Source: Alkanindiges illinoisensis DSM 15370 (lineage in GTDB: Bacteria; Pseudomonadota; Gammaproteobacteria; Pseudomonadales; Moraxellaceae). From it: 32,000 nucleotides of DNA. Positions 4,727 through 20,403 of the stretch are shown here, one piece after another (within the stretch, counting starts at the first letter, position 1; each line of letters starts with the position of its first letter). The stretch lies in contig NZ_JHUX01000003.1 in the NCBI RefSeq assembly GCF_000619845.1, positions 430,064 through 462,063 on the forward strand, written 5' to 3'. Both the position numbers and the translations under genes were made by a program. The notes under the pieces were generated by a model that did not search any database, was not told where the DNA came from, and worked only from the letters and a program-made list of their open reading frames with translations.

Positions 4727-4757
4727 ATATTTTATTCAGTCATTTTCAGGAATTAAT

Positions 4758-5372
4758 ATGTCAGAACGTAGTCCACTTCGAGTCGGCATTGGAGGCCCGG
4801 TTGGTTCGGGTAAAACAGCCCTTACCTTAAATCTGTGCCTTGCCTTGCGTGATAAATACAATATGGCGGTGGTCACTAATGATATTTATACCAAGGAAGA
4901 CTCCAACTTTTTAACCCGCAATCAAGCCATGACTCCAGACCGGATTGTCGGGGTCGAAACGGGCGGTTGTCCACATACCGCCATCCGGGAAGATGCTTCG
5001 ATTAATCTGGCGGCTATTGATGACCTGAATAACAAGTTTGCTGGACTTGAGCTGATTATTATTGAAAGTGGTGGGGATAACCTGGCTGCAACCTTTAGTC
5101 CTGAGCTGTCTGATTTAACCTTATATGTCATTGATGTGGCCGCTGGGGAAAAAATCCCGCGTAAGGGTGGACCCGGCATTACCAAGTCTGACCTGCTGAT
5201 TATCAACAAGACTGACCTGGCGCCAATGGTAGGGGCGTCGCTCGAAGTGATGGATCAGGATGCCAAACGTATGCGGGGTGAGCGACCATTTCTGTTTTCC
5301 AACATGAAAACCAAAGATGGCCTAAATGACATTATTGCCTTTATTGAAAAGCAAGGTCTATTCAAGAATTAA
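4758..5372 (+). CDS. ureG: Urease accessory GTPase UreG
   Basis: P-loop [11 protein letters not shown], Cys-Pro-His nickel motif ([11 protein letters not shown]), ESGGDNL and NKTDLA. The start is moved to ATG 4758 (AGGA 8 nt upstream); the track ORF from 4671 is an upstream extension overlapping ureF. Confidence 0.95.
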
Positions 5373-5391
5373 CTCCGATTGAGGAAAAATC

Positions 5392-5949
5392 ATGCGATTT
5401 TTATTACTGACGTTACTGGCAGTTTCAGGTGCTGCACTGGCACATCCGGGCCATGAATACAGTCATTCTGCCTTGCTGGCGGGGTTGCTGCATCCATTGT
5501 CGGGACTGGATCATTTAACCATGGGCCTGGGTTTGGGAATTTTGCTGGCGCGCACTTTTAAGCAGGCACGCTTTATGGGACTGGCATTGTTACTGGTCAC
5601 ACTCAGTGCTGGTTTTATGCTGGGCATGGCACAGATTGTTCCTGTTAACATCGCAGAATATGGCATTGTGGCATCGTTGCTGGTATTGGCGATTGCATTG
5701 TGGCAGCGTTCTACCTCAGTATTTTTGGCAATGGCTGCGCTGCTGGGCATATTCCACGGACTGGCGCACGGCGCTGAATTAGGGACTGAGATGAATCCGG
5801 TAGGCTTTATGATGGGCATGCTAATTACGTTAAGCGCACTCTACAGTGTTGGCCTGGTTGCAGGGCAATGGATCAAGCGTCATATCAAGCAAGGTGACCG
5901 TGTAGTTGCTGTGCTAACTGGTGTGGTTGCATTGCTGGGACTGGCTTAA
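5392..5949 (+). CDS. ureJ: HupE/UreJ family nickel transporter
   Basis: 185 aa. A signal peptide is followed by HPGHEYSH, and LSGLDHL and HGLAHG motifs are present. The protein is multi-TM and lies last in the urease cluster. Confidence 0.88.
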   Translation: MRFLLLTLLAVSGAALAHPGHEYSHSALLAGLLHPLSGLDHLTMGLGLGILLARTFKQARFMGLALLLVTLSAGFMLGMAQIVPVNIAEYGIVASLLVLAIALWQRSTSVFLAMAALLGIFHGLAHGAELGTEMNPVGFMMGMLITLSALYSVGLVAGQWIKRHIKQGDRVVAVLTGVVALLGLA

Positions 5950-6375: not shown

Positions 6376-6669
6376 TCAAATTCCGCACACACTGCAATTC
6401 ATGCCCTTGCAATTATGCAGTACCGAGTTACGGGCAGCATTTTTTTCAGTGCCCGGCCCGCTAATGCCTTTACCGGCCAGTTGTTCAGCCTTACTTTGCG
6501 GTTGCCATTTGTAGTTGGTTTTAAACTGCACCCGTCCAGTGAGCAGGGGCTTGGCCGGCGTTGCCTGCTGGCAGTAGTGGCAACTAATTTCGCTGGACAG
6601 CTCGGAAACGGCCAGCTGTTGTTCAAAAATACCGTCGCAATGCTGGCAACGAATGTCATATAAGGGCAT
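6376..6669 (-). CDS. fmdB: FmdB-family zinc-ribbon putative regulatory protein
   Basis: 97 aa. N-terminal MPLYDIRCQHC-(x18)-CHYC is the CxxC...CxxC ribbon typical of the FmdB family. AAGGAG lies 8 nt upstream, and the gene is immediately downstream of the formamidase gene. Confidence 0.8.
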   Translation of the reverse strand: MPLYDIRCQHCDGIFEQQLAVSELSSEISCHYCQQATPAKPLLTGRVQFKTNYKWQPQSKAEQLAGKGISGPGTEKNAARNSVLHNCKGMNCSVCGI

Positions 6670-6701
6670 GGTAAAACTCCTTAACCCAAATTATTGATGA
6701 C

Positions 6702-6730
6702 TTAAAAAGCCTCCCCATGGCTAGGGAGGT
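6702..6730 (-). terminator. Intergenic hairpin plus U-tract between fmdA and fmdB (terminator/attenuator)
   Basis: On the minus strand, CCTCCC-TAGCCATG-GGGAGG is followed by CTTTTTAA. The GC-rich 6-bp stem spans 6710-6715 and 6724-6729. Confidence 0.5.
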
Positions 6731-6763
6731 TTGTTTGGGTTTTTAGTCCACTGTCATTAAAGT

Positions 6764-7942
6764 TTAGCGCTCATGGCCCCAATATTTTTTCTCACTCAGC
6801 ATGCCTTTGGGCAGGATGTCCTGCTCAAAAATACCGGTGGGCAGTGAAATGGTGCAGGCACAGTTGGGAATATCCACAATGCCACCAATGCGGCCTTCAA
6901 CCGGTGCCGCTGTAAGCAGCATATACGCCTGACTACCGGTAAAGCCAAAGTTTTCCAGATATTTAATTGCTTTTAAACAGGCCTGTCGATAAGCCACAGT
7001 GGCATCCAGATAGTAGTTCACGCCATTTTCCACGCTGATGCCTTCAAAGGTGAGCCATTCGTCGTAGTTGGGTTTGACCGGACTGGGAATAAAAATGGGC
7101 GCGTCGATGTTGTACTTGGCCATACCGCCCTTAATCAGGTCAAAGCCCACGCGGGTCACGCCATCCATTTCAATGGCGCCACAAAAGCCAATTTCACCAT
7201 CGCCTTGCGAGAAGTGCAAATCACCCATCGAAAACCCGGCTCCCGCCACATACACCGGAAAGAAAATCCGCGAACCTGCCGATAAGTCCTTGATATCCGT
7301 ATTTCCACCGTGTTCACGCGGTGGCACCGTACGTGCGGCCTCGCTTGCCATACGGTCAAACTCGGCGCCTTGCAAGCCACGTAGTACCGCAGTGCGCGGG
7401 TCGGGGGGATTGGCCTGACCTTTGGGCACCAGCAGCGCTTCACGGCGGTTCCATTCCTTGAGCAAGTCCATAGAGGGCAGGCAACCCATCAAGCCCGGAT
7501 GGGTGAGGCCAGCAATCCGCACGCCCGGAATATGCCGTGAGGTGGCATACAGACCTTTTAAATCCCAAATGGCTTTGTCGGCATCGGGGAAATAATCGGC
7601 CAGAAAGCCACCGCCATTTTCCTTGGCAAATACACCGGAAAACCCAATCGGGGTGACCGGTTTAATATCTAGCAGGTCAATCACCAGCAAGTCGCCCGGT
7701 TCAGCGCCTTCCACGTAAAAGGGTCCGGTTAACGGATGCGCACGGGTCAGGTCAACATTAATAATATCGTCAACGGTGTCGGTATCCTTGATTTGTGCAT
7801 CCAGAAAATCCAGACTTTCCAGCAGGATTTCTTCGCCTGGCTTGACCGAGGTTAAAAACGGAATGTCCGGGTGCCAGCGGTTATGCCCCAGTTCAGCTTG
7901 TTCGGCTAGCGGTATCCCGGGTTTAATTTTGATATGTTGCAT
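6764..7942 (-). CDS. fmdA: Formamidase / acetamidase-family amidohydrolase
   Basis: FmdA_AmdA-family motifs: HNRWHPDIP, GPFYVEGAEPGDLLVID, FAKENGGGFL, TVPPREHGGNTDIKDL, GDLHFSQGDGEI.FCGAIEM. The start is set at ATG 7942 (MQHIK..., GAGGA 9 nt upstream); the track's 8044 start adds 34 poorly coding residues. Confidence 0.9.
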   Translation of the reverse strand: MQHIKIKPGIPLAEQAELGHNRWHPDIPFLTSVKPGEEILLESLDFLDAQIKDTDTVDDIINVDLTRAHPLTGPFYVEGAEPGDLLVIDLLDIKPVTPIGFSGVFAKENGGGFLADYFPDADKAIWDLKGLYATSRHIPGVRIAGLTHPGLMGCLPSMDLLKEWNRREALLVPKGQANPPDPRTAVLRGLQGAEFDRMASEAARTVPPREHGGNTDIKDLSAGSRIFFPVYVAGAGFSMGDLHFSQGDGEIGFCGAIEMDGVTRVGFDLIKGGMAKYNIDAPIFIPSPVKPNYDEWLTFEGISVENGVNYYLDATVAYRQACLKAIKYLENFGFTGSQAYMLLTAAPVEGRIGGIVDIPNCACTISLPTGIFEQDILPKGMLSEKKYWGHER

Positions 7943-8070
7943 GATGGTGTCCTCGGTATGTGCATGGTGTTGCGACTTGAATTTACGATCAGGTTGCCAA
8001 GGCATTGGCGGTGAAAAAGCGTTCCGGTCAGGAGGTCTGGTCAAGCGATTGTTTGCATTGCCAGTTCAAG

Positions 8071-9141
8071 CTATGAATTAACCGGATGCGCCATAACGGC
8101 GAATTGCCGGTTTTTGACCGTCATATACAGTTGCTGCTGTTCTGGGTGCTCAAGGATAAAACGCGCCAGTACCGGTTCCAGTTGGGTACGAAACTTGCGC
8201 GCCAGATCACGCGCGCCAAAGCGCACACGATGCTGACGGCTGAGCAGTGCCCGTGTGCTGGCATCAAGGCGGATACTGCGGCCCTGTTTGCGCAGGCGGG
8301 TGTTCAACTTATCCAGTTCAATATCAATCAATGCGGCCAGCCACTGTTTGGCCACGGGCTGGTAATGCAAAATCCTGTCAATCCGGTTTAAAAATTCAGG
8401 ATCAAACTGCTGGTGCAGGGCTTTTTCAGTGATTTGCCGAGGTGATTTGCCCAGTTGTTGACAAAGCATTTGAACCGGTTTGGGTAGTCTGGAAAAATAA
8501 TTCAGCGCGTTTTGTGCCTGACGTGCGCCCACGTTACTGGTCATAAAAATCAGGCTGTTTTTAAAATCAATGGTTTTGCTGCCAGAAGACAAAGTCAGCG
8601 TGCCGCTATCAAGTATATTGAGCAGGCTACGAATCACCTCTGTGCTGGCTTTTTCCAGCTCATCAAACAGCACAATGCCGGGTTTGCTAAAACTGCCCTG
8701 TATCGCCTCAATGTCAAATAACGTGGTGCCTTCCTTGCTGCCGACATAACCCGGCGGCGCTCCAGTCAGCGCGGCGGCATAGTGTTCCTGCGCCAGCGTA
8801 TTCATATCAATACGGCAAAAGGCATTGGGACGGCCATAAATTGCCTCGCTAATCAGCCGTACGGTTTCGGTTTTGCCCACGCCGGTTGAACCCAGCATCA
8901 GCGTGACCGACAACGGGCGCTCGGTGCTGGAAAAATCAGCCTTGACCACATTGAGCATGTTTTCAATTTCGTCCAGTGCAGCCTCTTGCCCAATAATGCG
9001 TGCGCGCAAATGCTGCATCACCACTTTTGGTTCAAACGCAAAGCGTGAGGTGTTCAAACGCTGCTGGCTGGCGGCATCGGCATGGCGTTGCTGTGCATTG
9101 GTCTCGCGGTTGTGTTCCAGCACATCATTAATAAACGGCAT
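8071..9141 (-). CDS. amiB: AmiB-like AAA+ (Clp-related) ATPase
   Basis: Walker A GSTGVGKTE and Walker B VLFDELEKA. It directly follows amiE, as amiB does in the P. aeruginosa amiEBCRS operon. ATG 9141 is preferred over the track's TTG 9162. Confidence 0.75.
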   Translation of the reverse strand: MPFINDVLEHNRETNAQQRHADAASQQRLNTSRFAFEPKVVMQHLRARIIGQEAALDEIENMLNVVKADFSSTERPLSVTLMLGSTGVGKTETVRLISEAIYGRPNAFCRIDMNTLAQEHYAAALTGAPPGYVGSKEGTTLFDIEAIQGSFSKPGIVLFDELEKASTEVIRSLLNILDSGTLTLSSGSKTIDFKNSLIFMTSNVGARQAQNALNYFSRLPKPVQMLCQQLGKSPRQITEKALHQQFDPEFLNRIDRILHYQPVAKQWLAALIDIELDKLNTRLRKQGRSIRLDASTRALLSRQHRVRFGARDLARKFRTQLEPVLARFILEHPEQQQLYMTVKNRQFAVMAHPVNS

Positions 9142-9198
9142 TGCTAAACCCTTTTTGCTCAATTTGCTGTACTAGCCCTTTCCTGTCAGGTAAAACGC

Positions 9199-10239
9199 TT
9201 AAGCCTCTTTTTCCAGTCCTTCATGCGGCAGGTTGCCAATCGGGCATTCAGCCACGCCAATGGTAGAGCGAGTAAAGCTTTCGACATTGGCCTGTGCTTT
9301 TTCGGCATCCAGCACCCATGTGCGGTAAAAATCAAACGGGCAGGTGGCTACACCCTTGTCGCCATCGCCATTGTTGTAAACGCCGGTGTAACCACGATGC
9401 AGCAGCTTGAACAAATGATTTTGTGCCTGATCGTACTTGCGCGCATCGCGGATTTCGGGGATGGATAATTGCGCGTACTGAATGCCATTTTCTTCTTCGC
9501 CACATTCGCCTAAGGTGCGGCCATCAAAACCCACAATGGCTGAATGACCAAAATAGGTATACACGCCATCAAAACCGGTGCAGTTGGCGACAGCCACATA
9601 GCAGTTGTTGGCCCAAGCCATGGTTTTGGCCATCATGATCTGCTGTTCCTTGGCGGGGTACATATAACCCTGACAGCGCACAATCAGCTCGGCGCCTTTC
9701 ATGGCACAGTCACGCCAGATTTCGGGATAGTTGCCGTCATCACAGATAATCAGGGAAATTTTTAAGCCTTTGGGGCCAACCGACACATAAGTCTGATCGC
9801 CTGGACACCAGCCTTCAATCGGGCACCACGGGATTACCTTGCGGTATTTCTGCACAATCTCGCCGTCGTTATTAATCAGTACCAGCGTGTTGTATGGTAC
9901 TTTCTGCGGGTGCTGTTCATGCCGTTCGCCGGTAATGGAAAACACGCCCCACACATTGGCCTGCTTGCACGCCGCCGAGAAAATCGCGGTTTCATCACCG
10001 GGAATAGTGGCGGCGGTTTCCATCATTTCGCTCTGGTCATACATGATGCCCATGGTGCTGTATTCGGGAAAAATCACCAGATCCATACCGGGCAAACCCT
10101 GCTTCATGCCAATCAGCATGTCAGCAATTTTTTTGGCATTGTCCAGCACTTCGGCTTTGGTGTGCAGGCGTGGAATGCGATAGTTCACTACGGCCACACC
10201 CACGGTACTGGGACTGCTTGAAATATCGCCATGACGCAT
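9199..10239 (-). CDS. amiE: Aliphatic amidase (nitrilase superfamily)
   Basis: 346 aa, colinear by eye with P. aeruginosa AmiE from [17 protein letters not shown] to [23 protein letters not shown]. Catalytic contexts are present: FPE59YS, KYRK134VIPW, LIIC166DDGNYPE. A GAAGGAAG SD lies upstream. Confidence 0.97.
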
Positions 10240-10405: not shown

Positions 10406-10425
10406 CATACGTTGGATGACGTATA
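10406..10425. promoter_or_regulatory. 20-bp palindrome CATACG-N8-CGTATA upstream of the amiE leader (candidate operator)
   Basis: Sequence CATACGTTGGATGACGTATA. It lies between the urtE terminator and the amiE leader hairpin. Its arms and spacing are nearly identical to the palindrome at 15866-15885. Confidence 0.45.
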
Positions 10426-10564: not shown

Positions 10565-11266
10565 CTAAACCGACAAATACTGGCTAATGGTTTTTTCATC
10601 CACGTTGTCGCGGGTGTTTTCATACACCAGCCGACCCTTGTCAATCACAAAAAAGCGGTCAGCAATGTCCATGGTAAAGCTCAGCACCTGCTCGGATACC
10701 ACAATGGTCAGATCGCGCTGGTCACGGATTTGTTTGAGCGAGCGGGCAATATCCTTAATGATGGAGGGCTGAATGCCTTCGGTGGGTTCGTCTAAAAGCA
10801 ACACTTTGGGGTTGGTCGCCAGTGCCCGCGCAATCGCCAGTTGTTGCTGCTGGCCACCGGACAAATTGCCGCCCTTGCGCTTGCGCATGTCATACAGCAC
10901 CGGGAACAGTTCATATAAATCTTCTGGCACCTTGCCGCGTGCCGAAGCAGGCAGGCCGGTCTGGATATTTTCCAGTACCGTCATGGTGGAAAATATCATG
11001 CGGCCCTGCGGCACATAAGCCAGTCCATTATTAACGCGCTGATAAGAATCCATTTTTTCAATGCGCTTGCCGTCCAGCGTAATTTCACCACCTCGGGTTG
11101 GCAGCACGCCCATCAGGGTTTTAAACAGCGTGGTTTTGCCCATGCCATTACGGCCCATCACCGCAATAATTTCATTTTTGGCCACGTCTAGGTTTAGCTG
11201 GTGAATCACTTCACTTTGTCCATAGCCGGAGGCCAGGGCTTGAATATTAAACATACTGCTCATCAT
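10565..11266 (-). CDS. urtE: Urea/short-chain-amide ABC transporter ATP-binding protein UrtE
   Basis: ABC ATPase with Walker A GRNGMGKTT, signature LSGGQQQ and Walker B LLLDEP; LivF-like and last gene of the urt operon. Start set at ATG 11266 (GGAGA SD) rather than the track's 11311. Confidence 0.9.
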   Translation of the reverse strand: MMSSMFNIQALASGYGQSEVIHQLNLDVAKNEIIAVMGRNGMGKTTLFKTLMGVLPTRGGEITLDGKRIEKMDSYQRVNNGLAYVPQGRMIFSTMTVLENIQTGLPASARGKVPEDLYELFPVLYDMRKRKGGNLSGGQQQQLAIARALATNPKVLLLDEPTEGIQPSIIKDIARSLKQIRDQRDLTIVVSEQVLSFTMDIADRFFVIDKGRLVYENTRDNVDEKTISQYLSV

Positions 11267-11323
11267 GTTTTCTCCAGTATGACATTTAGAAATATTGAAC
11301 AACGTCGGCAATGCAGCTCGCTA

Positions 11324-12088
11324 TTAATGGCCCAAATACACTTCGATCACTTTAGGATTGCTCTGTACATCTTCCATTTTGCCTTCTGCCAGAATCTGTC
11401 CCTGATGCAGCACGGTTACTTTATCGGCAATGGTTTTAACAAATTCCATATCGTGCTCAATCACCAGCACCGAGCGGCCTTCACAAATCTTACGAATCAA
11501 CAGCGCGGTTTTTTCGCGTTCCGAAACACTCATGCCAGCCACCGGTTCATCCAGCATCACTAGTTCGGGGTCTTGCATCAGCAGCATGCCAATTTCCAGC
11601 CACTGTTTTTGCCCGTGTGAGAGTAAATCAGCAGTTTGATCCAGCATGTCGGTGAGAAAAATCTCGGCAGCAATGGCTTTTACCCGGTCAATCACATCAT
11701 TTGATCGTTTGAAAAATAGTGCGCCAAACACGGTACGCCCGCGTGGAAAGGACATTTCCAGATTTTCAAACACGGTCAGGTTTTCATAAATGGACGGGGT
11801 CTGAAACTTGCGGCCAACGCCAGCATGCACAATCGCATGCTCGCTCATGCCGGTTAATTCCTTGCCCTTAAACTGGATTTTGCCGCTGGTGGCACGGGTT
11901 TTGCCGCAAATCAAATCCAGCACCGTGGTTTTGCCGGCACCGTTAGGGCCAATCACCACGCGTACTTCATTGGGATCAATGTACATGGTGAGGTTGTTGA
12001 CGGCCTTGAATCCGTCAAACGACACGGTTAAGTCTTCAACTAGCAGCACTGGTTTTGGCATTTCAACGCCAATGGCTTGATGGCTCAT
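11324..12088 (-). CDS. urtD: Urea/short-chain-amide ABC transporter ATP-binding protein UrtD
   Basis: ABC ATPase with Walker A GPNGAGKTT, LSHGQKQ and Walker B VMLDEP; LivG-like. Its ATG overlaps the urtC stop (ATGA at 12085-12088). Confidence 0.9.
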   Translation of the reverse strand: MSHQAIGVEMPKPVLLVEDLTVSFDGFKAVNNLTMYIDPNEVRVVIGPNGAGKTTVLDLICGKTRATSGKIQFKGKELTGMSEHAIVHAGVGRKFQTPSIYENLTVFENLEMSFPRGRTVFGALFFKRSNDVIDRVKAIAAEIFLTDMLDQTADLLSHGQKQWLEIGMLLMQDPELVMLDEPVAGMSVSEREKTALLIRKICEGRSVLVIEHDMEFVKTIADKVTVLHQGQILAEGKMEDVQSNPKVIEVYLGH

Positions 12089-13263
12089 TTGCTGGACTCC
12101 TCTGCGCTGGCTGCTGTCACGCTAACCGGGCTGTGTTCAACCACCACACTATTGCTGCTGGCCGGGGTTTTGGTTTTTTTGGCCGAAAAATAAGGCTTGA
12201 CGTACTTGTCATACAGACCAGCCAGACCATTGGGGAAGAACATCACCACCACAATAAACAGGCCACCCATCAGGAATAACCACAGCTCCGGGAAGGATTC
12301 AGAAAAGTAGGTTTTGCCAAAGTTCACCAGCAGCGTGCCGTATACAGCGCCCAGCAAGGACAGGCGACCACCCACTGCCGCAAATATCACCATTTCAATC
12401 GAAGGCACGATGCCGACAAAGGACGGTGACATAAAGCCCACTTGCAGGGTAAACATGGCACCGCCAATGGCTGAAATGGCAGCGGCAACACAGAAAATAA
12501 ATACCTTGTACATCGATACGTTGTAGCCGGAAAAGCGTACCCGTTCTTCCTTGTCACGCATGGCAGACAGCAGGCGGCCCAGCTTGGAACTTAGGATATA
12601 GCGGCCGACCAGAATGGCAGCAATCAGCAAGCCCGCATTGACAAAGTACAACACGTATTTGGCCGAATCGGTGCGGATATCCCAGCCATGCAGGGTTTTG
12701 AGGTCAGTAATACCATTGACGCCACCAGTAAAGCCCTGCTGGCCAATGATTAAAATGGTCAGAATGGCGGCAATGGCCTGGGTGACAATTGAAAAGTACA
12801 CATCGCCCACGCGACGGGTAAACATGGCAATGCCAATGATAAAGGCCAGTACAGTGGGTACGGCAATCACCGCAAACAGGGTAAAGGCAAAACTATGGAA
12901 CGGTTCCCACATTAGCGGCAGGCTGGTCACCTGATTCCAGTCCATAAAGTCGGGAATGCCGGGTGTGGTCTGGTGCGCGGTACTGGTGGCATCCGAGGCT
13001 TCCAGCTTTAAAAACATGGCCATGCAGTAACCGCCAAGACCAAAGAAAATGCCCTGACCCAGACTTAAAATACCGCCGTGGCCCCAGCACAGCACTAATC
13101 CAACCGCCACAAAGGCATAGCTTAAATATTTGCCCACCAGGTTAAGGCGGAAGATGTCAAAGAAAACCGGCATCACCACTAAGATGATGGCCGCCAGAAT
13201 CAGCAGGCCAATGGCGCCCTGTTTTCCACCAAGTATTGCATTTAATGTATCTTTCATGATCAT
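12085..13263 (-). CDS. urtC: Urea/short-chain-amide ABC transporter permease UrtC
   Basis: 392 aa, highly hydrophobic LivM-like permease lying between urtB and urtD. Confidence 0.88.
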   Translation of the reverse strand: MIMKDTLNAILGGKQGAIGLLILAAIILVVMPVFFDIFRLNLVGKYLSYAFVAVGLVLCWGHGGILSLGQGIFFGLGGYCMAMFLKLEASDATSTAHQTTPGIPDFMDWNQVTSLPLMWEPFHSFAFTLFAVIAVPTVLAFIIGIAMFTRRVGDVYFSIVTQAIAAILTILIIGQQGFTGGVNGITDLKTLHGWDIRTDSAKYVLYFVNAGLLIAAILVGRYILSSKLGRLLSAMRDKEERVRFSGYNVSMYKVFIFCVAAAISAIGGAMFTLQVGFMSPSFVGIVPSIEMVIFAAVGGRLSLLGAVYGTLLVNFGKTYFSESFPELWLFLMGGLFIVVVMFFPNGLAGLYDKYVKPYFSAKKTKTPASSNSVVVEHSPVSVTAASAEESSK

Positions 13264-13326
13264 TCTTCTGTCAGTGAGGTGAAGACCGTGCGCAGTGACT
13301 TGCGCAGCCCTTGCATCAGTACGCCA

Positions 13327-14244
13327 CTACTTGCGCACCTTGACCGAAAACAAACCTTGCGGGCGAATCATCAGGATAATAATGACCACGGACAGGGTAA
13401 TGACTTTGGCCATTGAGCCACTAATAAAGAACTCAAGAACCGACTGGGTTTGTGCAATGGAGAAGGCCGAGGCAATGGTGCCAACCAGGCTTTGCGCGCC
13501 ACCAAACACCACTACTAAAAAGGTATCCACAATGTACAGCGAGCCAGAGGTTGGACCAGTGGAACCAATGGTGGTAAATGCAGCACCGGCAATACCAGCC
13601 ACCCCGCAGCCCAGCGCAAAGGTCATGCGGTCCACCCGCTTGGTATTAATGCCTACCGCGTTACTCATAATGCGGTTTTGTGTGGTGGCGCGTACTTGTA
13701 AGCCCCAGCGTGAACGGAACAGCAAATAGAAAATAATGCTGGTGACGACTAAGGTAATGCCCACCAGAAACAGGCCGTTAATGGGAATATCAATCAGGTC
13801 GGTGGGCTGGTAGGAACCCATCAGCCATTCCGGCAGGGTGGGGCTGACTTCCTTGGGACCAAAAGTAGAGCGGAAGATCTGCTGCATGACCAGACTCAAG
13901 CCCCAGGTGGCCAGCAGGGTATCCAGTGGACGGTGATACAGTCTTGAAATCATCACACGTTCCACGCCGTAGCCTACAAGGCCTGCAATAAAGAACGACA
14001 CAATGATGGCAATAAAAAAGTAGTAGGGCATCAAGGCCGGGGCATAGCTTTCGGTCAGGGTCGAGATCATGTAGGTGGTATAGGCACCAATGGTGAGAAA
14101 CTCGCCATGTGCCATGTTAATTACGCCCATCTGGCCAAAAATAATGGCAAGACCCAGGGCCATTAGCAGCAGCACACAAAACACCGATAAGCCATTAAAG
14201 CCTTGCATTGCGAAGATTGCGCCCATTTCTGAGAGTGAGGTCAT
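13327..14244 (-). CDS. urtB: Urea/short-chain-amide ABC transporter permease UrtB
   Basis: 305 aa LivH-like permease (MGVINMAHGEF motif). A TGGAG SD lies 7 nt upstream. Confidence 0.88.
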   Translation of the reverse strand: MTSLSEMGAIFAMQGFNGLSVFCVLLLMALGLAIIFGQMGVINMAHGEFLTIGAYTTYMISTLTESYAPALMPYYFFIAIIVSFFIAGLVGYGVERVMISRLYHRPLDTLLATWGLSLVMQQIFRSTFGPKEVSPTLPEWLMGSYQPTDLIDIPINGLFLVGITLVVTSIIFYLLFRSRWGLQVRATTQNRIMSNAVGINTKRVDRMTFALGCGVAGIAGAAFTTIGSTGPTSGSLYIVDTFLVVVFGGAQSLVGTIASAFSIAQTQSVLEFFISGSMAKVITLSVVIIILMIRPQGLFSVKVRK

Positions 14245-14349
14245 GGCAAACTCCAGCGTTGGGTTTGAAAGCAGGCGCTAAAAGCAGATATTAAAATTCT
14301 TGGCTTAACGCAACCGATTCAATCCAACGGTTAAAAGCAAATAGTGAAA

Positions 14350-14442
14350 AACAGTCTGTAAAAATCTTTGAACGCAGACTGTTAAAAGCAGTAGAACAAA
14401 AGACCAATAACCGGGCGGTGACAAGCATTGGCCCATCACCGC
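14350..14442 (-). promoter_or_regulatory. Two intercistronic stem-loops in the urtA-urtB spacer
   Basis: AACAGTCTG (14350-14358) pairs with CAGACTGTT (14375-14383), and GCGGTGA (14415-14421) pairs with TCACCGC (14436-14442). There is no strong U-tract. This is consistent with the mRNA-stabilising or partial-terminating structures often found after binding-protein genes. Confidence 0.4.
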
Positions 14443-14467
14443 AAGGATCAATTCAGGACTAAATTGC

Positions 14468-15724
14468 CTAGTAACCTTTCGGGAACGGGTTTGGCACAAT
14501 CAGCTTGGGTGATTCATATACCACCTTAAACTGGCCGTTGGGCAGCGCCATACCAATGCGGGACTTGCTCCACAGGTGATGGTTTGGATGCACTTTCACA
14601 TAGCCTTCCGGTGCAGTTTTCAGCTCAATACCAGGAGAAGCAGCCACCACCTTGTTCACATCAAAACTACCGGCTTTTTCAACTGCGGCTTTCCACAGCC
14701 ATGGACCCAGATAAGCTGCCTGCGTTACATCACCAATCACGGCTTTGGGGCCATATTTGGCTTTGAAGGCCTGTACGAATTTCACATTGTTGGGGTTATT
14801 CAGGCTCTGGAAGTATTTAAACGAGGCATAGAACCCGGCCATGTTTTCACCGCCAATCCCCAGCAATTCATCCTCGCTGGCTGAGAAGGTCAGCAGGGTT
14901 TGCTTGTTGCCTGTCACGCCAGCAGCTTTTAGCTGTTTGTAAAACGCCACGTTGGAGCCGCCTACTACCGCAGAGACAATGGCATCCGGGTGCTTGAGCT
15001 TCATTTTGTTAATCAGTGAGCCAAACTGGGTGCTGCCCAGCGCATAGTATTCTTCACCCACCACTTTGCCTTTCAGCACTTTTTCAATATGGGTACGGGC
15101 AATTTTCATGGTGGTGCGCGGCCAGATATAATCAGAGCCCACCAGGTAAAAAGTCTTGGCTTTCTTCTCGCGCGCCAGCCAGTTCAGGGCTTCAAGCACC
15201 TGCTGGGTGGCTTCCTGTCCGGTGTAAATCACGTTTTTGGATTGTTCCAGCCCTTCATAAAAGGTGGGGTAATACAGCAGGCCATTGTCACGTTCAAAAA
15301 TGGGCAGTACCGCTTTGCGTGAAGCAGAGGTCCAGCAGCCAAAAACGGCAGCAACCCGGTCTTTTTCTAACAATTTTTTGGATTTTTCAGCAAAGGTTGG
15401 CCAGTCAGAGGCACCATCTTCCTGAATAATACGAATCTTGCGGCCCAGGATTCCGCCTTGCGCATTGATCTGTTCAATGGCCAGTCGTTCGGCCTGAATG
15501 GCACCGGTTTCACTGATGGCCATGGTGCCAGTGGCAGAGTGCAACTGACCAACCACCACTTCCTTGTCATTCACGGCAAGCTTGGTGGTATTGATGGCTG
15601 CGGTTGCTGGTGCAGCCTGTGCCAGGATGGGCAGCATGGCCAAAGGTAAGGACATTAACCCCAAAACCAGTTTACGACGGCTGGTTTTTAATGTGGATTG
15701 GAGCGTTTTAGTGGGATTGGTCAT
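14468..15724 (-). CDS. urtA: Periplasmic urea/short-chain-amide-binding protein (UrtA/FmdD, LivJ-fold)
   Basis: A signal peptide with an RR-containing n-region (TSRRKLVLGLMSLPLAMLPILAQA) precedes a type-I periplasmic binding fold (VVGQLHSATGTMAISE, FGCWTSASRKAV). Start set at ATG 15724 (AGGAG 9 nt upstream) rather than the track's 15775. Confidence 0.9.
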   Translation of the reverse strand: MTNPTKTLQSTLKTSRRKLVLGLMSLPLAMLPILAQAAPATAAINTTKLAVNDKEVVVGQLHSATGTMAISETGAIQAERLAIEQINAQGGILGRKIRIIQEDGASDWPTFAEKSKKLLEKDRVAAVFGCWTSASRKAVLPIFERDNGLLYYPTFYEGLEQSKNVIYTGQEATQQVLEALNWLAREKKAKTFYLVGSDYIWPRTTMKIARTHIEKVLKGKVVGEEYYALGSTQFGSLINKMKLKHPDAIVSAVVGGSNVAFYKQLKAAGVTGNKQTLLTFSASEDELLGIGGENMAGFYASFKYFQSLNNPNNVKFVQAFKAKYGPKAVIGDVTQAAYLGPWLWKAAVEKAGSFDVNKVVAASPGIELKTAPEGYVKVHPNHHLWSKSRIGMALPNGQFKVVYESPKLIVPNPFPKGY

Positions 15725-15865
15725 GGTTGACGACTCCTGAAAAAGCAATGTGTAAAGGCAGTGCTTAAACCGCAAGCTTGTTGTGCTATTGAACTGTTTA
15801 TCAGCAGGTTAAACAGGCCACCTGCCAGCTTGTAATCAGACTACGTGCAACGCCGTACTGCCCGC

Positions 15866-15885
15866 TATACGTCACATTGCGTATA
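15866..15885. promoter_or_regulatory. 20-bp palindrome TATACG-N8-CGTATA in the divergent urtA / sensor-kinase control region (candidate operator)
   Basis: Sequence TATACGTCACATTGCGTATA has perfect 6-bp inverted arms. It lies about 140 nt upstream of the urtA ATG and about 120-130 nt upstream of the kinase start. Its architecture matches 10406-10425. Confidence 0.45.
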
Positions 15886-16015
15886 TCGGGTTTAAAAAAT
15901 AGCCAGCTTGTGAAAAAAGAAAATTGGAATGAGAAAAACAATGGACCGATAGCATTGATCTTGGCGCGCTTTTTGAATTGATGAGATACGCTATTTTTTA
16001 AATGTTGTGTTATCC

Positions 16016-19000
16016 ATGTCAGTTCCATTGCCAGACAGCGCAATTACCCAGCCGGAGGATGGTTCTGCCCCCCAGCGCATTATTAAGATCCGGCGTGACT
16101 ACAACACCTGGGTAGCTGATGAAACGCTGGAAGACTACGCCTTGCGCTACACACCTAAAACCATGCGCAAGTGGTCGGAGTTCCGGGTAGCCAATACCGC
16201 CTTTGGTGCGGTGTCGTTTCTGGCCATGGAAGCCATTGGTGCTTCAATCGCGCTTAATTACGGCTTTATTAATGCTTTTGTGGCGATTTGCGTGGTGTGC
16301 CTGCTGATTTTTTTAACCAGCCTGCCTATCAGCTACTATGCAGCGCGCTATGGCGTAGACATGGACCTGCTCACGCGAGGTGCAGGTTTTGGTTATATTG
16401 GTTCAACCCTAACGTCTTTAATTTATTCCAGTTTTACTTTTATTTTCTTTGCCATAGAAGCCGCTATTATGGCGCTGGCACTGGAGCTGTTTACCGGTCT
16501 GCCGTTATATTTGGGTTATCTGGTCAGTTCGCTAGTGATCATTCCCGTGGTGCTGCGCGGCATTACGCTCATCAATAAATTACAGGCATGGACACAGCCC
16601 GTCTGGCTGATGTTGCTGATCCTGCCGTATGCCGCTTTGCTGTATCAGCAACCCACCATTCTGCATGACACGCTGAATTTTTCCGGCAAGTTCGGGCAGG
16701 CCCCAGAATTTAATGTGCTACTTTTTGGTGCAGCCTGTACGGTTATTTTTGCGTTAGTGGCCCAGGTTGGGGAGCAGGTCGATTATTTGCGCTTTTTACC
16801 AGCCAAAACGCCCCAGAACCGGACGCGCTGGTATGGCGCATTACTGACTGCCGGACCAGGCTGGATTTTGTTTGGCATGTTCAAGATTTTTGGCGGGGTA
16901 TTGCTGGCAGTGCTGGCCTTGCAGCATTTTGTGCCGCTGGACAAAGCCTCTGACCCCACGCAGTTATATTTAATTGCCTATCAGTATGTGTTTGCCCAGC
17001 CAGAAGTGGCGCTGGCCTTTACCGCACTGTTTGTGGTGATTTCCCAGATCAAGATTAATGTGACCAATGCCTATGCGGGTTCGCTGGCGTGGTCGAATTT
17101 TTTTGCACGCCTGACCCATAGCCATCCCGGGCGGGTGGTGTGGCTGGTGTTTAATGTGCTAATTGCCGTACTGCTGATGGAACTGGGCGTGTTTCATGCG
17201 CTAGAGCAGGTACTGGGCCTATATGCCAATGTTGCCATTGCGTGGATTGCCGCACTGGTGGCCGATCTGGTGATTAACAAGCCGCTGGGCTTAAGTCCCA
17301 AGGGCATTGAGTTTCGCCGTGCCTATTTATATGACATTAATCCGGTAGGCGTGGGCGCTATGCTGATTGCCTCGGTGCTGTCCATTACCGCCTATTCCGG
17401 GGTGTTTGGTGAGCTGCCCAAGGCACTGGCCTCGTTTATTGCCCTGACCACCTCATTTATTTGTGTGCCCTTAATTGCATGGCTGACCAAAAGCAAATAC
17501 TACATTGCCCGTCCACCGACGATTTTTTATCAGGAGTTGCAAGGCTGCTGTATTTGTGAAAAAAAATATGAAAAAGAAGACATGGCCTATTGCCCGGCCT
17601 ATCAGGATGCCATTTGTTCGCTGTGCTGCTCGCTGGATGCACGCTGCCATGACTTGTGCAAGCCAGAAGCCCGGTTGTCGTCACAACTACTGGCCATTGC
17701 CCAGAAAATCCTGCCTACCAGTTGGTCAACCCGCATCAATACCCGCCTAAGCTACTATTTGCTGTTGGTGCTGATTTTGACCGTACTGCTGGGTGCCAGC
17801 CTTGGCCTGATTTATTTTCAGGAAATCTTGGTATTGCAGGATTTTAACAGTGACAGTACTACCTCGCTGGCCCTGATTTTTATCAAGATTTTTGCCATTT
17901 TATTTTTGCTGATTTGCGTGGCGTCATGGTGGCTGGTGCTGACCTATGAAAGCCGCCGCGTGGCACAGGAAGAATCCAACCGGCAAACCACGCTGCTGGT
18001 TCAGGAAATTAATGCGCACCGCATTACCGACCAGCAATTACAGCAGGCGCAACAGGTGGCGGAGCGCGCCAATCAGGCCAAAAGTCGTTATGTCACTGGC
18101 ATTAGCCATGAACTGCGCACCCCGTTGAATAGCATTCTGGGCTACAGTCAATTGATTGCCAAGGATAACGGCCTGTCGCTGCAAAGCAAAACCCACCTCA
18201 ATATCATTCATCGTAGCGGCGCGCACCTGATTTCCCTGATTGATGGCCTGCTGGATCTGGCGCGTATTGAAACCGGCAAGCTCACACTGGTGCCTACCGA
18301 AATTAATCTGCCGGAATTTTTAAATTATTTGGCGGATATGTTCAGGCCACAGGCCACCGATAAGGGCATTACCTTTATTTGTGATTTTTCCGAGCACCTG
18401 CCGCAATATATTCGCAGCGATAAAAAACGGCTTGATCAGATTCTCATTAACATCATTGGCAATGCGGTCAAGTTTACCCAGCGTGGCAAAGTCACCTTTA
18501 AGGTCAGCTACCGTTACCAGACTGCCACCTTTGAAATTGATGACAGCGGTTGTGGCATTACCCCAGAGGACTTGCCCAATATCTTTAATCCATTTGAGCG
18601 TGGCGGCAATACACCAGCGCATGCCATTGCTGGGACAGGGCTAGGGCTGACCATTGCCAAATTGTTGACCGATTTGCTGGGTGGGGAAATTAATGTACGC
18701 AGTCAGGTCAGCGTGGGCAGTACTTTCCAGATTCGGCTATACCTGCCAGAGGTGCAAAGCCCCAAGCCCATTAGTTTAAATATCATTCACCAGATTACTG
18801 GCTATGAAGGCCCGCGCCAGAAAATCCTGCTGGTAGATAATGAAGAACTCGATCGCCAATTACTCTGGCAATTTTTGCAGCCCCTTGGCTTTGAGTTGGC
18901 CGAAGCTGATTCAGGGCTGGCTTGCCTGCGACTGGTGCCGGAATTCCAGCCGGACCTGATCCTGATGGATTTAACCATGCCGCACTTAAATGGCTGGGAG

Positions 19001-19483
19001 ACTGCCAGCATTCTGCGCAACAATCATTTAACCTTAGCCCCTATCCTGATTGTATCGGCCAATGCCGAAGAGCAGGGCAAAAGCAACGATGCCCAGATTG
19101 AGCGTGATGATTTTATTGTTAAACCAGTAGACCTGTTGCGTTTGCTGGAGCGTATTGGCCAGCGGCTTCACCTGAACTGGATCAAGCTGCAACAACAATC
19201 CACGTCTACGAATGTCCAGCCAGCAGCGTTAGCCGTGGTAGGACTCAACGAAGCGGTGTGTACCGGCGCCCATACCATTAAAAATCCACTAAGCCAGACC
19301 GACCGACAGGCTTTACAACAACTGGTCAATATGGGCTACGTGCGCGGCATTAACAGCAAACTTGATGACATTGCCCGGCAGCAACCTGAGCATACAATAG
19401 CCATTCAACACTTAAAAACCCTGGCCAATCAGTTTGACTTCAAAGCATTACAGACGCAATTACAACAGGAGCAATGGCCATGA
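16016..19483 (+). CDS. Hybrid sensor histidine kinase: NCS1-permease-like multi-TM domain, Cys-rich linker, 2 TM, HisKA-HATPase, receiver, Hpt-like C-terminus
   Basis: The first roughly 510 aa hold about 12 hydrophobic helices with purine/cytosine-permease-like motifs (RKWSEFRVANTAFGAVSFL, LTRGAGFGYIGS). These are followed by CCICEKKYEKEDMAYCPAYQDAICSLCCSLDARCHDLC and two more TM helices. Then come the H-box GISHELRTPLN, N/G boxes (IIGNAVKFT, DSGCGI, GTGLGLTI), a REC domain (ILLVDN..., LILMDLTMPHLNG) and a C-terminal IQHLKTLANQF resembling the Hpt HxxKG region. The track start is GTG 16007; ATG 16016 is used here. Confidence 0.9.
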   Translation: MSVPLPDSAITQPEDGSAPQRIIKIRRDYNTWVADETLEDYALRYTPKTMRKWSEFRVANTAFGAVSFLAMEAIGASIALNYGFINAFVAICVVCLLIFLTSLPISYYAARYGVDMDLLTRGAGFGYIGSTLTSLIYSSFTFIFFAIEAAIMALALELFTGLPLYLGYLVSSLVIIPVVLRGITLINKLQAWTQPVWLMLLILPYAALLYQQPTILHDTLNFSGKFGQAPEFNVLLFGAACTVIFALVAQVGEQVDYLRFLPAKTPQNRTRWYGALLTAGPGWILFGMFKIFGGVLLAVLALQHFVPLDKASDPTQLYLIAYQYVFAQPEVALAFTALFVVISQIKINVTNAYAGSLAWSNFFARLTHSHPGRVVWLVFNVLIAVLLMELGVFHALEQVLGLYANVAIAWIAALVADLVINKPLGLSPKGIEFRRAYLYDINPVGVGAMLIASVLSITAYSGVFGELPKALASFIALTTSFICVPLIAWLTKSKYYIARPPTIFYQELQGCCICEKKYEKEDMAYCPAYQDAICSLCCSLDARCHDLCKPEARLSSQLLAIAQKILPTSWSTRINTRLSYYLLLVLILTVLLGASLGLIYFQEILVLQDFNSDSTTSLALIFIKIFAILFLLICVASWWLVLTYESRRVAQEESNRQTTLLVQEINAHRITDQQLQQAQQVAERANQAKSRYVTGISHELRTPLNSILGYSQLIAKDNGLSLQSKTHLNIIHRSGAHLISLIDGLLDLARIETGKLTLVPTEINLPEFLNYLADMFRPQATDKGITFICDFSEHLPQYIRSDKKRLDQILINIIGNAVKFTQRGKVTFKVSYRYQTATFEIDDSGCGITPEDLPNIFNPFERGGNTPAHAIAGTGLGLTIAKLLTDLLGGEINVRSQVSVGSTFQIRLYLPEVQSPKPISLNIIHQITGYEGPRQKILLVDNEELDRQLLWQFLQPLGFELAEADSGLACLRLVPEFQPDLILMDLTMPHLNGWETASILRNNHLTLAPILIVSANAEEQGKSNDAQIERDDFIVKPVDLLRLLERIGQRLHLNWIKLQQQSTSTNVQPAALAVVGLNEAVCTGAHTIKNPLSQTDRQALQQLVNMGYVRGINSKLDDIARQQPEHTIAIQHLKTLANQFDFKALQTQLQQEQWP

Positions 19484-20403
19484 GCAGCGCTTTGCATGAC
19501 CCATTAGCACAGGCAGGACAGGTAGTATTGATTGTGGATGACATACCGGACAATCTGGCGCTGCTGCACACTACACTGGATCAGGCTGGCTACACCGTGC
19601 TGGTGGCCACCGATGGCTATAGCGCCATAGAACGCGCCAGCAATTTTATGCCGGATGCCATTTTGCTGGATGCCATGATGCCCGGAATCAATGGCTTTGA
19701 CACCTGCAAGCTGCTAAAGGAAAATCCGCTAACCCAGCATATCCCCGTTATTTTTATGACTGGCCTGACCGAAAGCGAGCATGTGGTGCAGGGTTTTCAA
19801 AGTGGTGGGGTAGACTATGTGACCAAACCGCTGCAACATGATGTAGTTCTGGCACGGCTTAAAACCCATATTAACAATTCACGGCAGGTACACCAGCGTG
19901 AACAAATGATCAATGCTGCTGGTATTGCCATGCTGGCCTTCAATTCAAGTGGCCAGCTCATTTGGCAAACCCCGCTGGCCCTACAATTGCTTCAGGACAA
20001 TATTGAACAAATTGACAGCTTTTATTTAAAAATCAAGGAATGGTTCCAACACGCTGAAGCGCAATCCAGCCTGGTCATTTCTGGTATAAAGCAAAACCTG
20101 AGCCTGACCCGGCTTGTCGATACGAAGCAGACCGCGAATGGGCAAAGCAACCATCTAATCATGATCCAGACGCAGGACACCATTCCTGCACCTGAGATAC
20201 TCATGCAATGCTGTGGCATCACCCCACGTGAGGCTGAAGTACTGCACTGGGTGGCACTTGGCAAGACCAACCGAGATATTGGTGAAATTCTGGAACTTAG
20301 CCCGCGTACCGTGAATAAACATCTGGAGCATATTTTTAGCAAGCTGAATGTAGAAACCCGTACTGGTGCCGTGTCAGCAGCACTGGGCCGTGTTAAAAAA
20401 TAA
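19474..20403 (+). CDS. Response regulator: REC, central PAS-like region, LuxR/FixJ-type HTH
   Basis: REC domain (VLIVDDIPDN, AILLDAMMPGINGFD, TGL...K) and a C-terminal GerE/LuxR HTH (LTPREAEVLHWVALGKTNRDIGEILELSPRTVNKHLEHIFSKLNV). The ATG overlaps the kinase 3-prime end by 10 nt, indicating translational coupling. Confidence 0.9.
   Translation: MAMSSALHDPLAQAGQVVLIVDDIPDNLALLHTTLDQAGYTVLVATDGYSAIERASNFMPDAILLDAMMPGINGFDTCKLLKENPLTQHIPVIFMTGLTESEHVVQGFQSGGVDYVTKPLQHDVVLARLKTHINNSRQVHQREQMINAAGIAMLAFNSSGQLIWQTPLALQLLQDNIEQIDSFYLKIKEWFQHAEAQSSLVISGIKQNLSLTRLVDTKQTANGQSNHLIMIQTQDTIPAPEILMQCCGITPREAEVLHWVALGKTNRDIGEILELSPRTVNKHLEHIFSKLNVETRTGAVSAALGRVKK

Follow-up and report, generated by a model that had tools for sequence, protein, structure and literature searches.

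Among the major sources of nitrogen in soil, water and hosts are urea and small amides. To our knowledge, general nitrogen control (NtrC/NAC) is the only account given of urt and ure expression in most Proteobacteria, with few exceptions, UreR and AmiC/AmiR among them, so that a dedicated, substrate-linked two-component system would fill a regulatory gap. Whether such a system exists is the question raised by a 32,000-nucleotide stretch of Alkanindiges illinoisensis DSM 15370 (Moraxellaceae; assembly GCF_000619845.1, contig NZ_JHUX01000003.1, positions 430,064 to 462,063 of the forward strand; hereafter the window), in which the gene of a hybrid histidine kinase lies back to back with a urea/short-chain-amide transporter operon and overlaps the gene of a LuxR-type response regulator. 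A first-pass annotation, made from the letters of the window, had proposed that a permease-like sensor domain couples substrate binding or transport to the control of amide and urea scavenging. In the analysis reported here, kinase and regulator emerge as what is probably a two-component system that switches on the scavenging of urea and short-chain amides, and the kinase as a variant of the transporter-fused sensor kinases that is real, widespread and, it appears, unstudied, and that likely responds to urea or short-chain amides.

The 1158-residue reading frame named in the first-pass annotation is present in the list of open reading frames (ORFs) with a GTG start, an in-frame ATG lying three codons further on (16016), and its kinase domains follow in the order anticipated, with HisKA at residues 691-757, HATPase_c at 805-913 and REC at 940-1050 in Pfam. 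Both the core of the kinase, with His701, and its receiver, with Asp988, are intact; in the homologue alignment the D, S/A and K-P columns of REC are invariant, and in an AlphaFold2 (AF2) model of residues 926-1158 the predicted local distance difference test score (pLDDT) of REC is 96-98 and its Foldseek matches are REC folds. Zero Pfam matches were obtained for the first ~650 residues in the full-protein scan, and none of the NCBIfam equivalogs reached its cut-off (the best, TorS, scoring 277 bits against 676), which places the kinase outside every curated named family. A word-indexed homologue search with the kinase yielded at least 8000 clusters, the best match among those listed being only 68% identical, while an exhaustive search of 1.84 billion representatives with residues 1-510 alone returned 1716 clusters at E<=1e-3. 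Across orders, the N-terminal half is conserved at 60-68% identity, against 30-46% for the REC and tail region. In the family alignment of 75 sequences from which invariant columns were taken (A1), a cytoplasmic segment preceding the membrane domain is nearly invariant; predicted as a helix over residues 24-47 with low pLDDT in a second AF2 model (residues 1-664), it may serve in interaction or autoregulation.

What kind of domain occupies the unassigned half is answered by fold comparison. Hydropathy delineates ~12 hydrophobic segments up to residue 491, in agreement with the AF2 helices and with the membrane domain of about twelve helices first described, here placed at residues ~55-495. The model of residues 1-664 reaches a mean pLDDT of 81.5 and a predicted template-modelling score of 0.80, with the membrane core mostly above 90 and residues ~55-495 mostly above 85. 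When it was compared with the PDB by Foldseek, ranks 1-5 were all NCS1 transporters, namely CodB (7QOA) and Mhp1 (2JLN, 4D1A, 2X79), with E values of 1e-8 to 3e-7 and target-normalised TM-scores of 0.68-0.75, whereas other LeuT-fold families (SiaT, Nramp, NIS, DUR3, ApcT, LeuT) ranked lower at E >= 2e-5, the SSS structures (SiaT, NIS, SGLT, DUR3) being likewise placed below NCS1. The sensor-domain model accordingly shows a LeuT fold (5+5 inverted repeat) of 12 transmembrane (TM) helices with NCS1 members as its nearest structures.

At the level of sequence families the relationship is more distant. Residues 1-510 alone match no Pfam family even at E<=10, PF02133 (Transp_cyt_pur) included, and neither phmmer with this segment nor the family profile found a transporter in the PDB. 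A full-length profile searched against the PDB is dominated by kinase and REC matches, for which reason an N-terminal-only family alignment (A2) was built from locus DNA references and compared by hhalign with a CodB family profile built from E. coli codB and its relatives (A3). The two profiles, both shallow, align over 346 co-linear columns at 82.1% probability (E 1e-5; usual level 95%), spanning kinase residues 42-449 and CodB residues 5-366 of 419, and the single CodB sequence aligns with A2 at 77%. Within this alignment the loop motif HLLAR-FSFGxKGS of CodB falls on DLLTRGAGFGYIGS of the kinase, one of the motifs on which the first-pass annotation had based its comparison with NCS1 permeases. 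In addition, a distant family member (P0239) matches PF02133 over 385 residues with 17.9 bits (E 1.4e-3), below the cut-off of 23.5, and many homologues are labelled 'purine-cytosine permease-like protein' in JGI automatic annotation. Since NCS1 structures head the fold matches and the CodB profile aligns co-linearly, we read the domain as a probable divergent NCS1-like branch of the APC/LeuT superfamily rather than a canonical NCS1 member. The resemblance first noted lies beyond Pfam or PDB sequence searches of this protein and is backed by fold and profile comparison, which supports the relationship to transporter families whose absence was to have counted against the proposal.

The alignment also allowed CodB residues (PMC9379551) to be mapped onto the kinase and their conservation to be counted in the 75 sequences. 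In CodB, the aromatic pair Trp108/Phe204 sandwiches the substrate and is conserved throughout the NCS1 family (PMC9379551), whereas the kinase family has not kept it, with W108 replaced at position 147 (F in 59 and L in 16 of the 75) and F204 at position 251 (I in 47, V in 27; Phe147 and Val251 in the window). TM8 Asn280 corresponds to an invariant N354, and the invariant polar residues of TM3 and TM8 comprise T144, E151, K349 and N354. At the Na2 site, mapped with moderate confidence, G29 and T279 are kept as G67 and T353, T278 is lost (V/M/L352) and Asn275 is replaced by the invariant K349; a lysine fixed at the cation site in place of Na+ may confer sodium independence. Because the ring-stacking residues are lost, the pocket would fit a small non-aromatic ligand, to the extent that this moderate-confidence alignment holds.

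Between permease and kinase, the Cys cluster, the two further TM helices and the coiled coil of the first description were all recovered. The cluster comprises eight Cys that are invariant in the 75 sequences (C514, C517, C529, C537, C540, C541, C547 and C551) and whose spacing is identical in 79 of 80 loci. No family was found for this mini-domain in Pfam or the PDB beyond generic CxxC zinc-knuckle noise, and residues 511-688 gave only chance-level Pfam matches, with no STAC among them. NCS1 transporters have both termini inside, which places the 8-Cys domain and the kinase in the cytoplasm; metal binding, by two Zn sites or as an Fe-S centre, is plausible from the Cys pattern. The subsequent hairpin, with hydrophobic stretches at residues 584-602 and 621-639, continues from its second helix (615-663) unbroken to the end of the AF2 model and points toward the start of HisKA at 691.

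One element of the initial description did not survive. The C-terminal tail (IQHLKTLANQF) had been taken as Hpt-like, giving a complete His-Asp-His phosphorelay in one chain; yet Pfam Hpt (PF01627) was absent at E<=10 from the tail of the kinase and from 41 homologous tails, and only 9% of 111 full-length homologues have a His at the position of H1135 in IQHLK, the share of His staying at or below 11% throughout the folded tail (1097-1153). In the model of residues 926-1158 (overall pLDDT 88.7), REC is followed by a disordered linker and then by a four-helix bundle whose helices, at 9-15 residues each (pLDDT 89-98), are too short for a canonical Hpt. A larger relative (P0149) carries a genuine Pfam Hpt, which demonstrates that the test is able to detect one. 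Without an Hpt in the tail there is no complete in-chain relay. An ANTAR identity, to which EutV at Foldseek ranks 2 and 4 had pointed, was rejected as well, given a root-mean-square deviation of 19.7 Å and no match in the 41 tails (PF03861) or by PDB profile; nor did these tails match any other Pfam or PDB family.

Whether the association with urea and amide genes extends beyond this genome was examined in relatives of the kinase, which a pattern scan with one genome per species located in at least 595 species genomes, in taxa including Pseudomonas, Bordetella, Achromobacter, Herbaspirillum, Paraburkholderia, Methylophilaceae and Rhodocyclaceae. Eighty loci were screened by tblastn with the window's own proteins, 55 of them being well flanked (at least 8 kb on both sides). 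Genes of the urt, ure, fmdA or amiE type occur in the flanks of 68 of the 80, and 50 of the 55 well-flanked loci carry urt (44), ure (17), fmdA (21) or amiE (6) within 10 kb, which bears out the neighbourhood association that the first-pass annotation had put forward as a check. In 25/80 loci, urtA is the divergent neighbour of the kinase gene, and a LuxR-type regulator passes a strict coverage filter downstream of the kinase in 49/55; one of the six misses, from Pseudomonas (L057), was inspected and has a shorter REC+LuxR form. Two classes of UrtA can be distinguished: those 65-84% identical to UrtA of the window are always accompanied by fmdA (24/24 loci), whereas those ~42% identical never are (0/17), and the former may represent an amide/urea transporter of the FmdDEF type.

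The permease module is also found apart from this kinase. Proteins of ~550 residues (P0186, P0190, P0192, P0195 and P0239; 32-44% identity) consist only of the permease module and the same 8-Cys tail. Their gene context was taken from P0186 and P0190, the contigs of the other three being too short: an Amidase (PF01425) gene lies 33 nt downstream of P0186, within a cluster that includes FmdA_AmdA, a second amidase, CN_hydrolase and a LysR regulator, while P0190 overlaps a downstream Amidase (PF01425) gene by 4 nt. These neighbourhoods suggest that the stand-alone proteins form an unrecognised amide-permease clade, and they indicate that the permease and 8-Cys unit predates the kinase fusion and is linked to amide catabolism, the kinase lineage having added the TM hairpin and the signalling domains. 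Furthermore, the module is joined to PAS-GAF-PAS-GGDEF-EAL in P0133 (1554 residues) and to GAF-HisKA-HATPase-REC with the true Hpt in P0149 (1488 residues), and with such varied outputs it behaves as a portable sensor module. In the locus references, the stand-alone permease and 8-Cys genes with PF01425 genes directly behind them are found at L082, 8001-11227, where FmdA_AmdA, CN_hydrolase and a second amidase are also encoded, and at L085, 1079-3927.

A candidate target of the regulator was found in the promoter regions. The symmetrised consensus, ATACGTCA-NN-TGACGTAT, is a 7-2-7 palindrome (TACGTCA-NN-TGACGTA), whose strict pattern matches twice in the window where 0.23 matches are expected, the window holding three candidate sites in total. 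Of 26 intergenic regions between divergent urtA and kinase genes, 25 contain the heptamer TACGTCA, and TACG-N8-CGTA occurs at 72 sites in 1.5 Mb of loci, 70 of them intergenic. In 36/77 loci the 400 bp preceding the kinase contain a site, compared with 0.64% of equal-sized background windows, and the sites are almost confined to positions upstream of the kinase (whatever its neighbour), upstream of urtA of both classes, and between urtE and fmdA or amiE. In Pseudomonas loci (L007, L027, L044, L061), sites again come in tandem, 22 bp apart; a counterpart of the window's site before amiE precedes fmdA in L007, L021, L027, L057 and L061. The kinase-linked LuxR-type regulator is the only regulator always co-located with the palindrome, and inverted heptamers beginning with TAC in a 7-2-7 arrangement follow the layout of the NarL family, which fits a GerE-type regulator; the palindrome is putatively its binding site. 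Other promoter elements of the urtA-kinase intergenic region were less informative: a sigma-54 candidate at 15962-15977 was rejected, having two mismatches including the -12 GC (28 matches in the window, where chance alone predicts 35), and a sigma-70 scan gave one weak match, no better than shuffles. Comamonadaceae loci L052, L067 and L075 have a GC-richer variant of the palindrome upstream of urtA (TACGCCAC..GGCGTA), and no strict-pattern site was found upstream of their kinase genes; the operator may have drifted along with the regulator in this family.

A mechanism can be proposed in which urea and/or formamide and acetamide would fill the central pocket formed by TM1, TM3, TM6 and TM8 of the permease-like domain, and a rocking-bundle change of the LeuT type would be relayed through TM12, the Cys domain and the TM13-TM14 hairpin to the DHp helix and the kinase. 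The phosphoryl group of His701 would then be passed to the regulator, most likely directly because no Hpt is available, in which case the internal receiver would serve as a modulator or as a sink for phosphate; a separate Hpt protein encoded elsewhere could carry it instead. The phosphorylated regulator dimer would bind the palindromes, activate urtABCDE and amiE-fmdA, and autoregulate its own operon. A bolder version, which we consider rather unlikely, is that the domain is a true urea/small-amide transceptor that still translocates its ligand, in a cation-independent manner with Lys349 standing in for Na+, and relays its transport cycle through a metal-bound 8-Cys domain and the hairpin. Kinase and regulator would then constitute the first substrate-specific two-component system sensing urea and amides, and the module would define a hitherto unrecognised branch of amide permeases within the NCS1/APC superfamily, whose stand-alone members feed cytoplasmic amidases.

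Several observations weigh against an amide- or urea-responsive switch of this kind. In five of the 55 well-flanked loci, the 10 kb around the kinase are devoid of urea and amide genes, even at relaxed thresholds with extra amidase queries. The permease domain lies below every sequence-family threshold (Pfam, PDB phmmer and PDB profile), its profile-profile probability with CodB, at only 82%, is suggestive, and the residue mapping of pocket and cation site depends on that alignment. The ligand, transport, the phosphotransfer route and DNA binding are all inferred, and a hybrid kinase without Hpt fits more than one route to the regulator. Moreover, more than half of the loci lack the strict operator pattern before the kinase, the match in Comamonadaceae loci is different or missing, the operator could belong to another regulator, and no operator was found near the ure genes in the window, the ure promoter lying outside it.

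Three other explanations of the sensor were weighed against this background. The permease-like domain might read the activity or occupancy of the Urt transporter, or liganded UrtA, by protein contact, as in DctA-DcuS and BceAB-BceS; urt is indeed the commonest neighbour (44/55), the kinase gene is divergently adjacent to urtA in part of the loci (25/80), and the N-terminal segment, the 8-Cys domain and the C-terminal helical tail could all serve as interaction surfaces. This co-sensing is nonetheless improbable, for invariant polar residues of TM3, TM6 and TM8 occupy the canonical LeuT-fold substrate site, in stand-alone relatives as well, these relatives adjoin cytoplasmic amidases with no Urt transporter nearby, and many loci pair the kinase with ure only or have no transporter within 10 kb. 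In a second alternative, the ligand might be a ring ureide or nucleobase (allantoin, hydantoin, cytosine, uracil) or a nitrogen-rich compound (guanidine/biguanide, cyanate) that yields urea, so that the urea genes would be induced indirectly. Urea is a product of ureide and guanidine catabolism. Such a ligand would agree with the nucleobases and hydantoins carried by all characterised NCS1 members closest in fold (PMC9379551), and the NCS1 substrate range has lately been extended to metformin (PMC13390362). The aromatic sandwich on which ring stacking depends in NCS1 is absent, however (F/L147, V/I251), and the neighbours are urt, ure, fmdA and amiE together with signature amidases, with no allantoinase, hydantoinase or deaminase genes among them; a ligand of this sort is given little chance.

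The remaining explanation shifts the input to the 8-Cys domain, which would read Zn or Ni, or the redox state of an Fe-S centre or thiols, in connection with urease maturation or nitrogen status, leaving the permease mainly as a scaffold. It draws on the eight Cys with their spacing invariant in 79/80 loci, on their position between the permease and the hairpin leading to the kinase, and on the nickel-dependent urease and hupE/ureJ genes nearby. The same Cys domain, however, ends stand-alone permeases that have no kinase, which makes it part of the permease unit rather than a kinase-specific sensor, and conservation of the permease core exceeds what a scaffold would demand, as the identity of the N-terminal half relative to REC and tail indicates; metal or redox input is very improbable. 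The preferred reading remains a permease-like domain that binds urea or short-chain amides and controls the kinase, so that the central idea of the first-pass annotation is retained.

Transporter-fused kinases are already an established class, comprising the SLC5/STAC kinases CbrA, CrbS and RpuS (PMC9100948) and the Amt-fused Ks-Amt5 (cited in PMC12918730). The closest parallels are CrbS/CrbR and RpuS/RpuR, in which a hybrid kinase carrying an SLC5 symporter domain is paired with a LuxR-type regulator, and the regulator recognises a conserved motif in its target promoters (PMC9100948). As in these systems, an N-terminal LeuT-fold transporter domain is fused to HisKA-HATPase-REC, and a cognate REC+LuxR/GerE regulator, often from the same operon, would act through a promoter motif on the uptake and utilisation genes of one nutrient class. 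The absence of an in-chain Hpt is also shared on our reading, PMC9100948 describing a C-terminal REC and never mentioning an Hpt. In contrast to CrbS and RpuS, the transporter module is NCS1-like with no PF00474 (SLC5/SSS) match, the linker is an 8-Cys domain with TM hairpin instead of STAC and PAS, an extra small helical tail follows REC, and the predicted nutrients are nitrogenous (urea and amides) rather than acetate and pyruvate, the present kinase being known from sequence alone. It is not a member of the SLC5/STAC family but is analogous to CrbS/CrbR with a different transporter module and coupler.

More distant comparisons delimit the system further. In the summary that PMC9100948 gives of Zhang 2015 and Wirtz 2020, both transport and kinase activity are reported for CbrA, a Pseudomonas SLC5/STAC kinase, which makes this transporter-like sensor kinase the precedent for a bacterial transceptor. 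CbrA differs in not being hybrid, its partner CbrB in not being LuxR-type, and the pair in being a global carbon/nitrogen regulator instead of a local operon switch. CbrB is an NtrC-type sigma-54 activator. Ks-Amt5 (PDB 6EU6), described in PMC12918730 as an Amt-type ammonium sensor fused to a histidine kinase, likewise has the fold of a nitrogen-compound transporter turned into, or doubling as, a kinase input, but its fold is Amt and not LeuT/NCS1, it senses ammonium, and it has no assigned partner regulator. With CodB and Mhp1 (7QOA, 2JLN), the sensor domain shares the best fold matches, the co-linear profile of ~350 columns, the loop motif, the TM8 Asn (N280/N354) and the Na2 Thr (T279/T353), while differing in the missing PF02133 match, the lost aromatic sandwich and Lys349 at the Na2 Asn275 position; the kinase further adds the 8-Cys tail, two TM helices and the kinase domains, and transport by it is predicted at most. 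ArcB, BarA and TorS resemble it in HisKA, HATPase_c and REC with the conserved Asp (His701, Asp988 and Lys1039 here), the difference being that no C-terminal Hpt is present.

On the regulatory side, NarL and NarP operators are 7-2-7 heptamers of the form TACYYMT. The candidate operator resembles them in its TAC-initial inverted heptamers with a 2-bp gap, and the regulator has the same GerE/LuxR-type helix-turn-helix (HTH), but the heptamer is TACGTCA and binding is predicted only. A dedicated short-chain-amide sensor controlling amiE of P. aeruginosa is AmiC/AmiR, AmiC being related to the periplasmic-binding-protein fold of UrtA and FmdD; this pair differs in combining a cytoplasmic ligand sensor with an ANTAR antiterminator, not a two-component phosphorelay, and neither AmiC/AmiR nor NtrBC homologues were found in the 32,000 nucleotides, as the first-pass annotation had also noted.

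That annotation knew of no experimentally characterised example of this architecture, and none turned up here: no characterised member of the kinase family was found in the full-text literature, where most subscription journals go uncovered. The genome paper of D. aromatica lists, without comment, a histidine kinase (1131 aa), a response regulator (308 aa) and UrtA in the same layout (PMC2907700), and that of E. guguanensis notes, without experiments, a urtABCDE operon beside a hybrid histidine kinase and a LuxR regulator (PMC13296017). Papers on Azoarcus BH72 and on NtrC of P. stutzeri were rejected as characterisation, the gene pair being only annotated or not mentioned, and GrtK/GrtR of Burkholderia glumae were rejected as characterised relatives, GrtK being an unrelated 427-residue kinase with a PilS-like domain of six TM helices.

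The system would add a second transporter family, NCS1-like, to the transporter-derived sensors, so far mainly SLC5, together with a new coupling device in the 8-Cys domain and TM hairpin. Its role in urea and amide scavenging has strong support from comparative genomics, the predicted operator makes it directly testable, and possible uses include urea and amide biosensors and the control of urease in agricultural or clinical strains. The features on which this account is based, and those of the neighbouring genes, are collected in Table 1.

Table 1. Coordinates of the kinase, its domains, the candidate operators and the neighbouring genes in the window (aa, residue numbers of the protein).
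Feature	Position	Strand	Evidence
Hybrid sensor histidine kinase gene, 1158 aa	16007..19483	+	ORF list; GTG start; Pfam HisKA/HATPase_c/REC
Near-invariant N-terminal cytoplasmic segment, aa ~20-50	16064..16156	+	invariant R29 R30 Y32 N33 E39 E42 D43 Y44 R47 in 75 sequences
Predicted 12-TM NCS1-like (LeuT-fold) permease-type sensor domain, aa ~55-495	16169..17491	+	AF2, Foldseek, hhalign
Cytoplasmic 8-Cys mini-domain, aa ~505-555, C-x2-C-x11-C-x7-C-x2-CC-x5-C-x3-C	17519..17671	+	invariant Cys
TM13-TM14 hairpin, aa ~579-640, bringing the chain back to the cytoplasm	17741..17926	+	hydropathy 584-602, 621-639; AF2 helices 579-610, 615-663
Signalling helix / coiled coil from TM14 to DHp, aa ~641-690	17927..18076	+	AF2 helix 615-663; 664-690 beyond model
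HisKA (DHp), H-box SHELRTP, phospho-acceptor His701	18077..18277	+	PF00512, E 3e-17
HATPase_c catalytic domain	18419..18745	+	PF02518, E 3.3e-25
REC domain, conserved Asp988 and Lys1039	18824..19156	+	PF00072, E 6.4e-21
Small four-helix C-terminal domain, aa ~1097-1153, not Hpt	19295..19465	+	motif L..L.EL...GYVrGI..kLDeI...F...LR.La..F.L; AF2
Cognate response regulator, REC + middle segment + GerE/LuxR-type HTH	19474..20403	+	PF00072 93.8 bits, E 1e-26; PF00196 64.7 bits, E 6e-18
urtABCDE, urea/short-chain-amide ATP-binding cassette transporter operon, divergent from kinase	10565..15775	-	TIGR03407/03409/03408/03411/03410
urtA	14468..15775	-	TIGR03407, 513.8 bits
amiE, ClpB-like AAA+ gene, fmdA, fmdB-like zinc-ribbon ORF	6376..10239	-	NF009802 696 bits, NF045496 549 bits, both above cut-off
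Urease genes ureC, 255-aa ORF, ureE, ureF, ureG, hupE/ureJ	1053..5949	+	
Candidate operator TACGTCACATTGCGTA, urtA-kinase intergenic	15868..15883	.	exact pattern match
Weaker operator-like site TACGTGCAACGCCGTA, 26 bp from that at 15868..15883	15842..15857	.	TACG-N8-CGTA scan
Candidate operator TACGTTGGATGACGTA, urtE-amiE intergenic, 169 nt upstream of amiE	10408..10423	.	pattern scans

The gene neighbourhood agrees with the initial description. The regulator gene begins before the kinase stop, with an overlap of 10 nt, or of 4 nt from its second ATG (junction ATGGCCATGA), consistent with the coupling first suggested, and both of its Pfam scores lie above cut-off, giving the NarL/FixJ (LuxR-type) architecture. 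Its REC and HTH domains are separated by a segment of ~115 residues without family (regulator residues 130-245, window 19864-20208) that is lacking in Pseudomonas orthologues (e.g. L057, 13041-14078), so that the regulator has long and short forms.

On the other side of the intergenic region, urtA runs on the minus strand, divergent from the kinase as described, and is followed in order by urtB, urtC, urtD and urtE, amiE (an aliphatic amidase in NCBIfam), the ClpB-like AAA+ gene, fmdA (a formamidase) and a small FmdB-type ORF. All five Urt subunits exceed their NCBIfam cut-offs, TIGR03407 with 513.8 bits against 492.75, TIGR03409 with 398.6 against 250.3, TIGR03408 with 440.8 against 296.2, TIGR03411 with 374.4 against 304.1 and TIGR03410 with 334.7 against 285.8. 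The amiE, fmdA and ure genes that the kinase had been said to adjoin were thus all found, together with urtBCDE.

Between amiE and fmdA lies the ClpB/ClpA-like single-module AAA+ ORF of 363 residues (8071-9162, minus strand), a gene that also follows amiE in L021, L027 and L061 and is reminiscent of AmiB in the amidase operon of P. aeruginosa. Directly downstream of fmdA, a 97-residue ORF (6376-6669, minus strand) with two CxxC pairs (MPLYDIRCQHCDG...CHYCQ) looks like an FmdB-type zinc-ribbon 'putative regulatory protein', giving the fmdA-fmdB order known from Methylophilus. Within the urease cluster, the 255-residue ORF between ureC and ureE (2757-3524, plus strand) has no Pfam or NCBIfam match and is unusual in such a position. 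GC content falls to 0.38-0.42 at 20000-22000 and 25000-27000, compared with ~0.50 elsewhere in the window; both stretches are possibly acquired or decaying DNA, and the first contains a truncated Fic-domain ORF (20713-21114, minus strand) and the second a BLUF-domain protein (25911-26519). Finally, consecutive plus-strand genes at 26970-31683 encode a class-III aminotransferase, a pyridoxal-phosphate-dependent decarboxylase and an IucA/IucC-FhuF protein, which is the signature of a siderophore pathway independent of non-ribosomal peptide synthetases.

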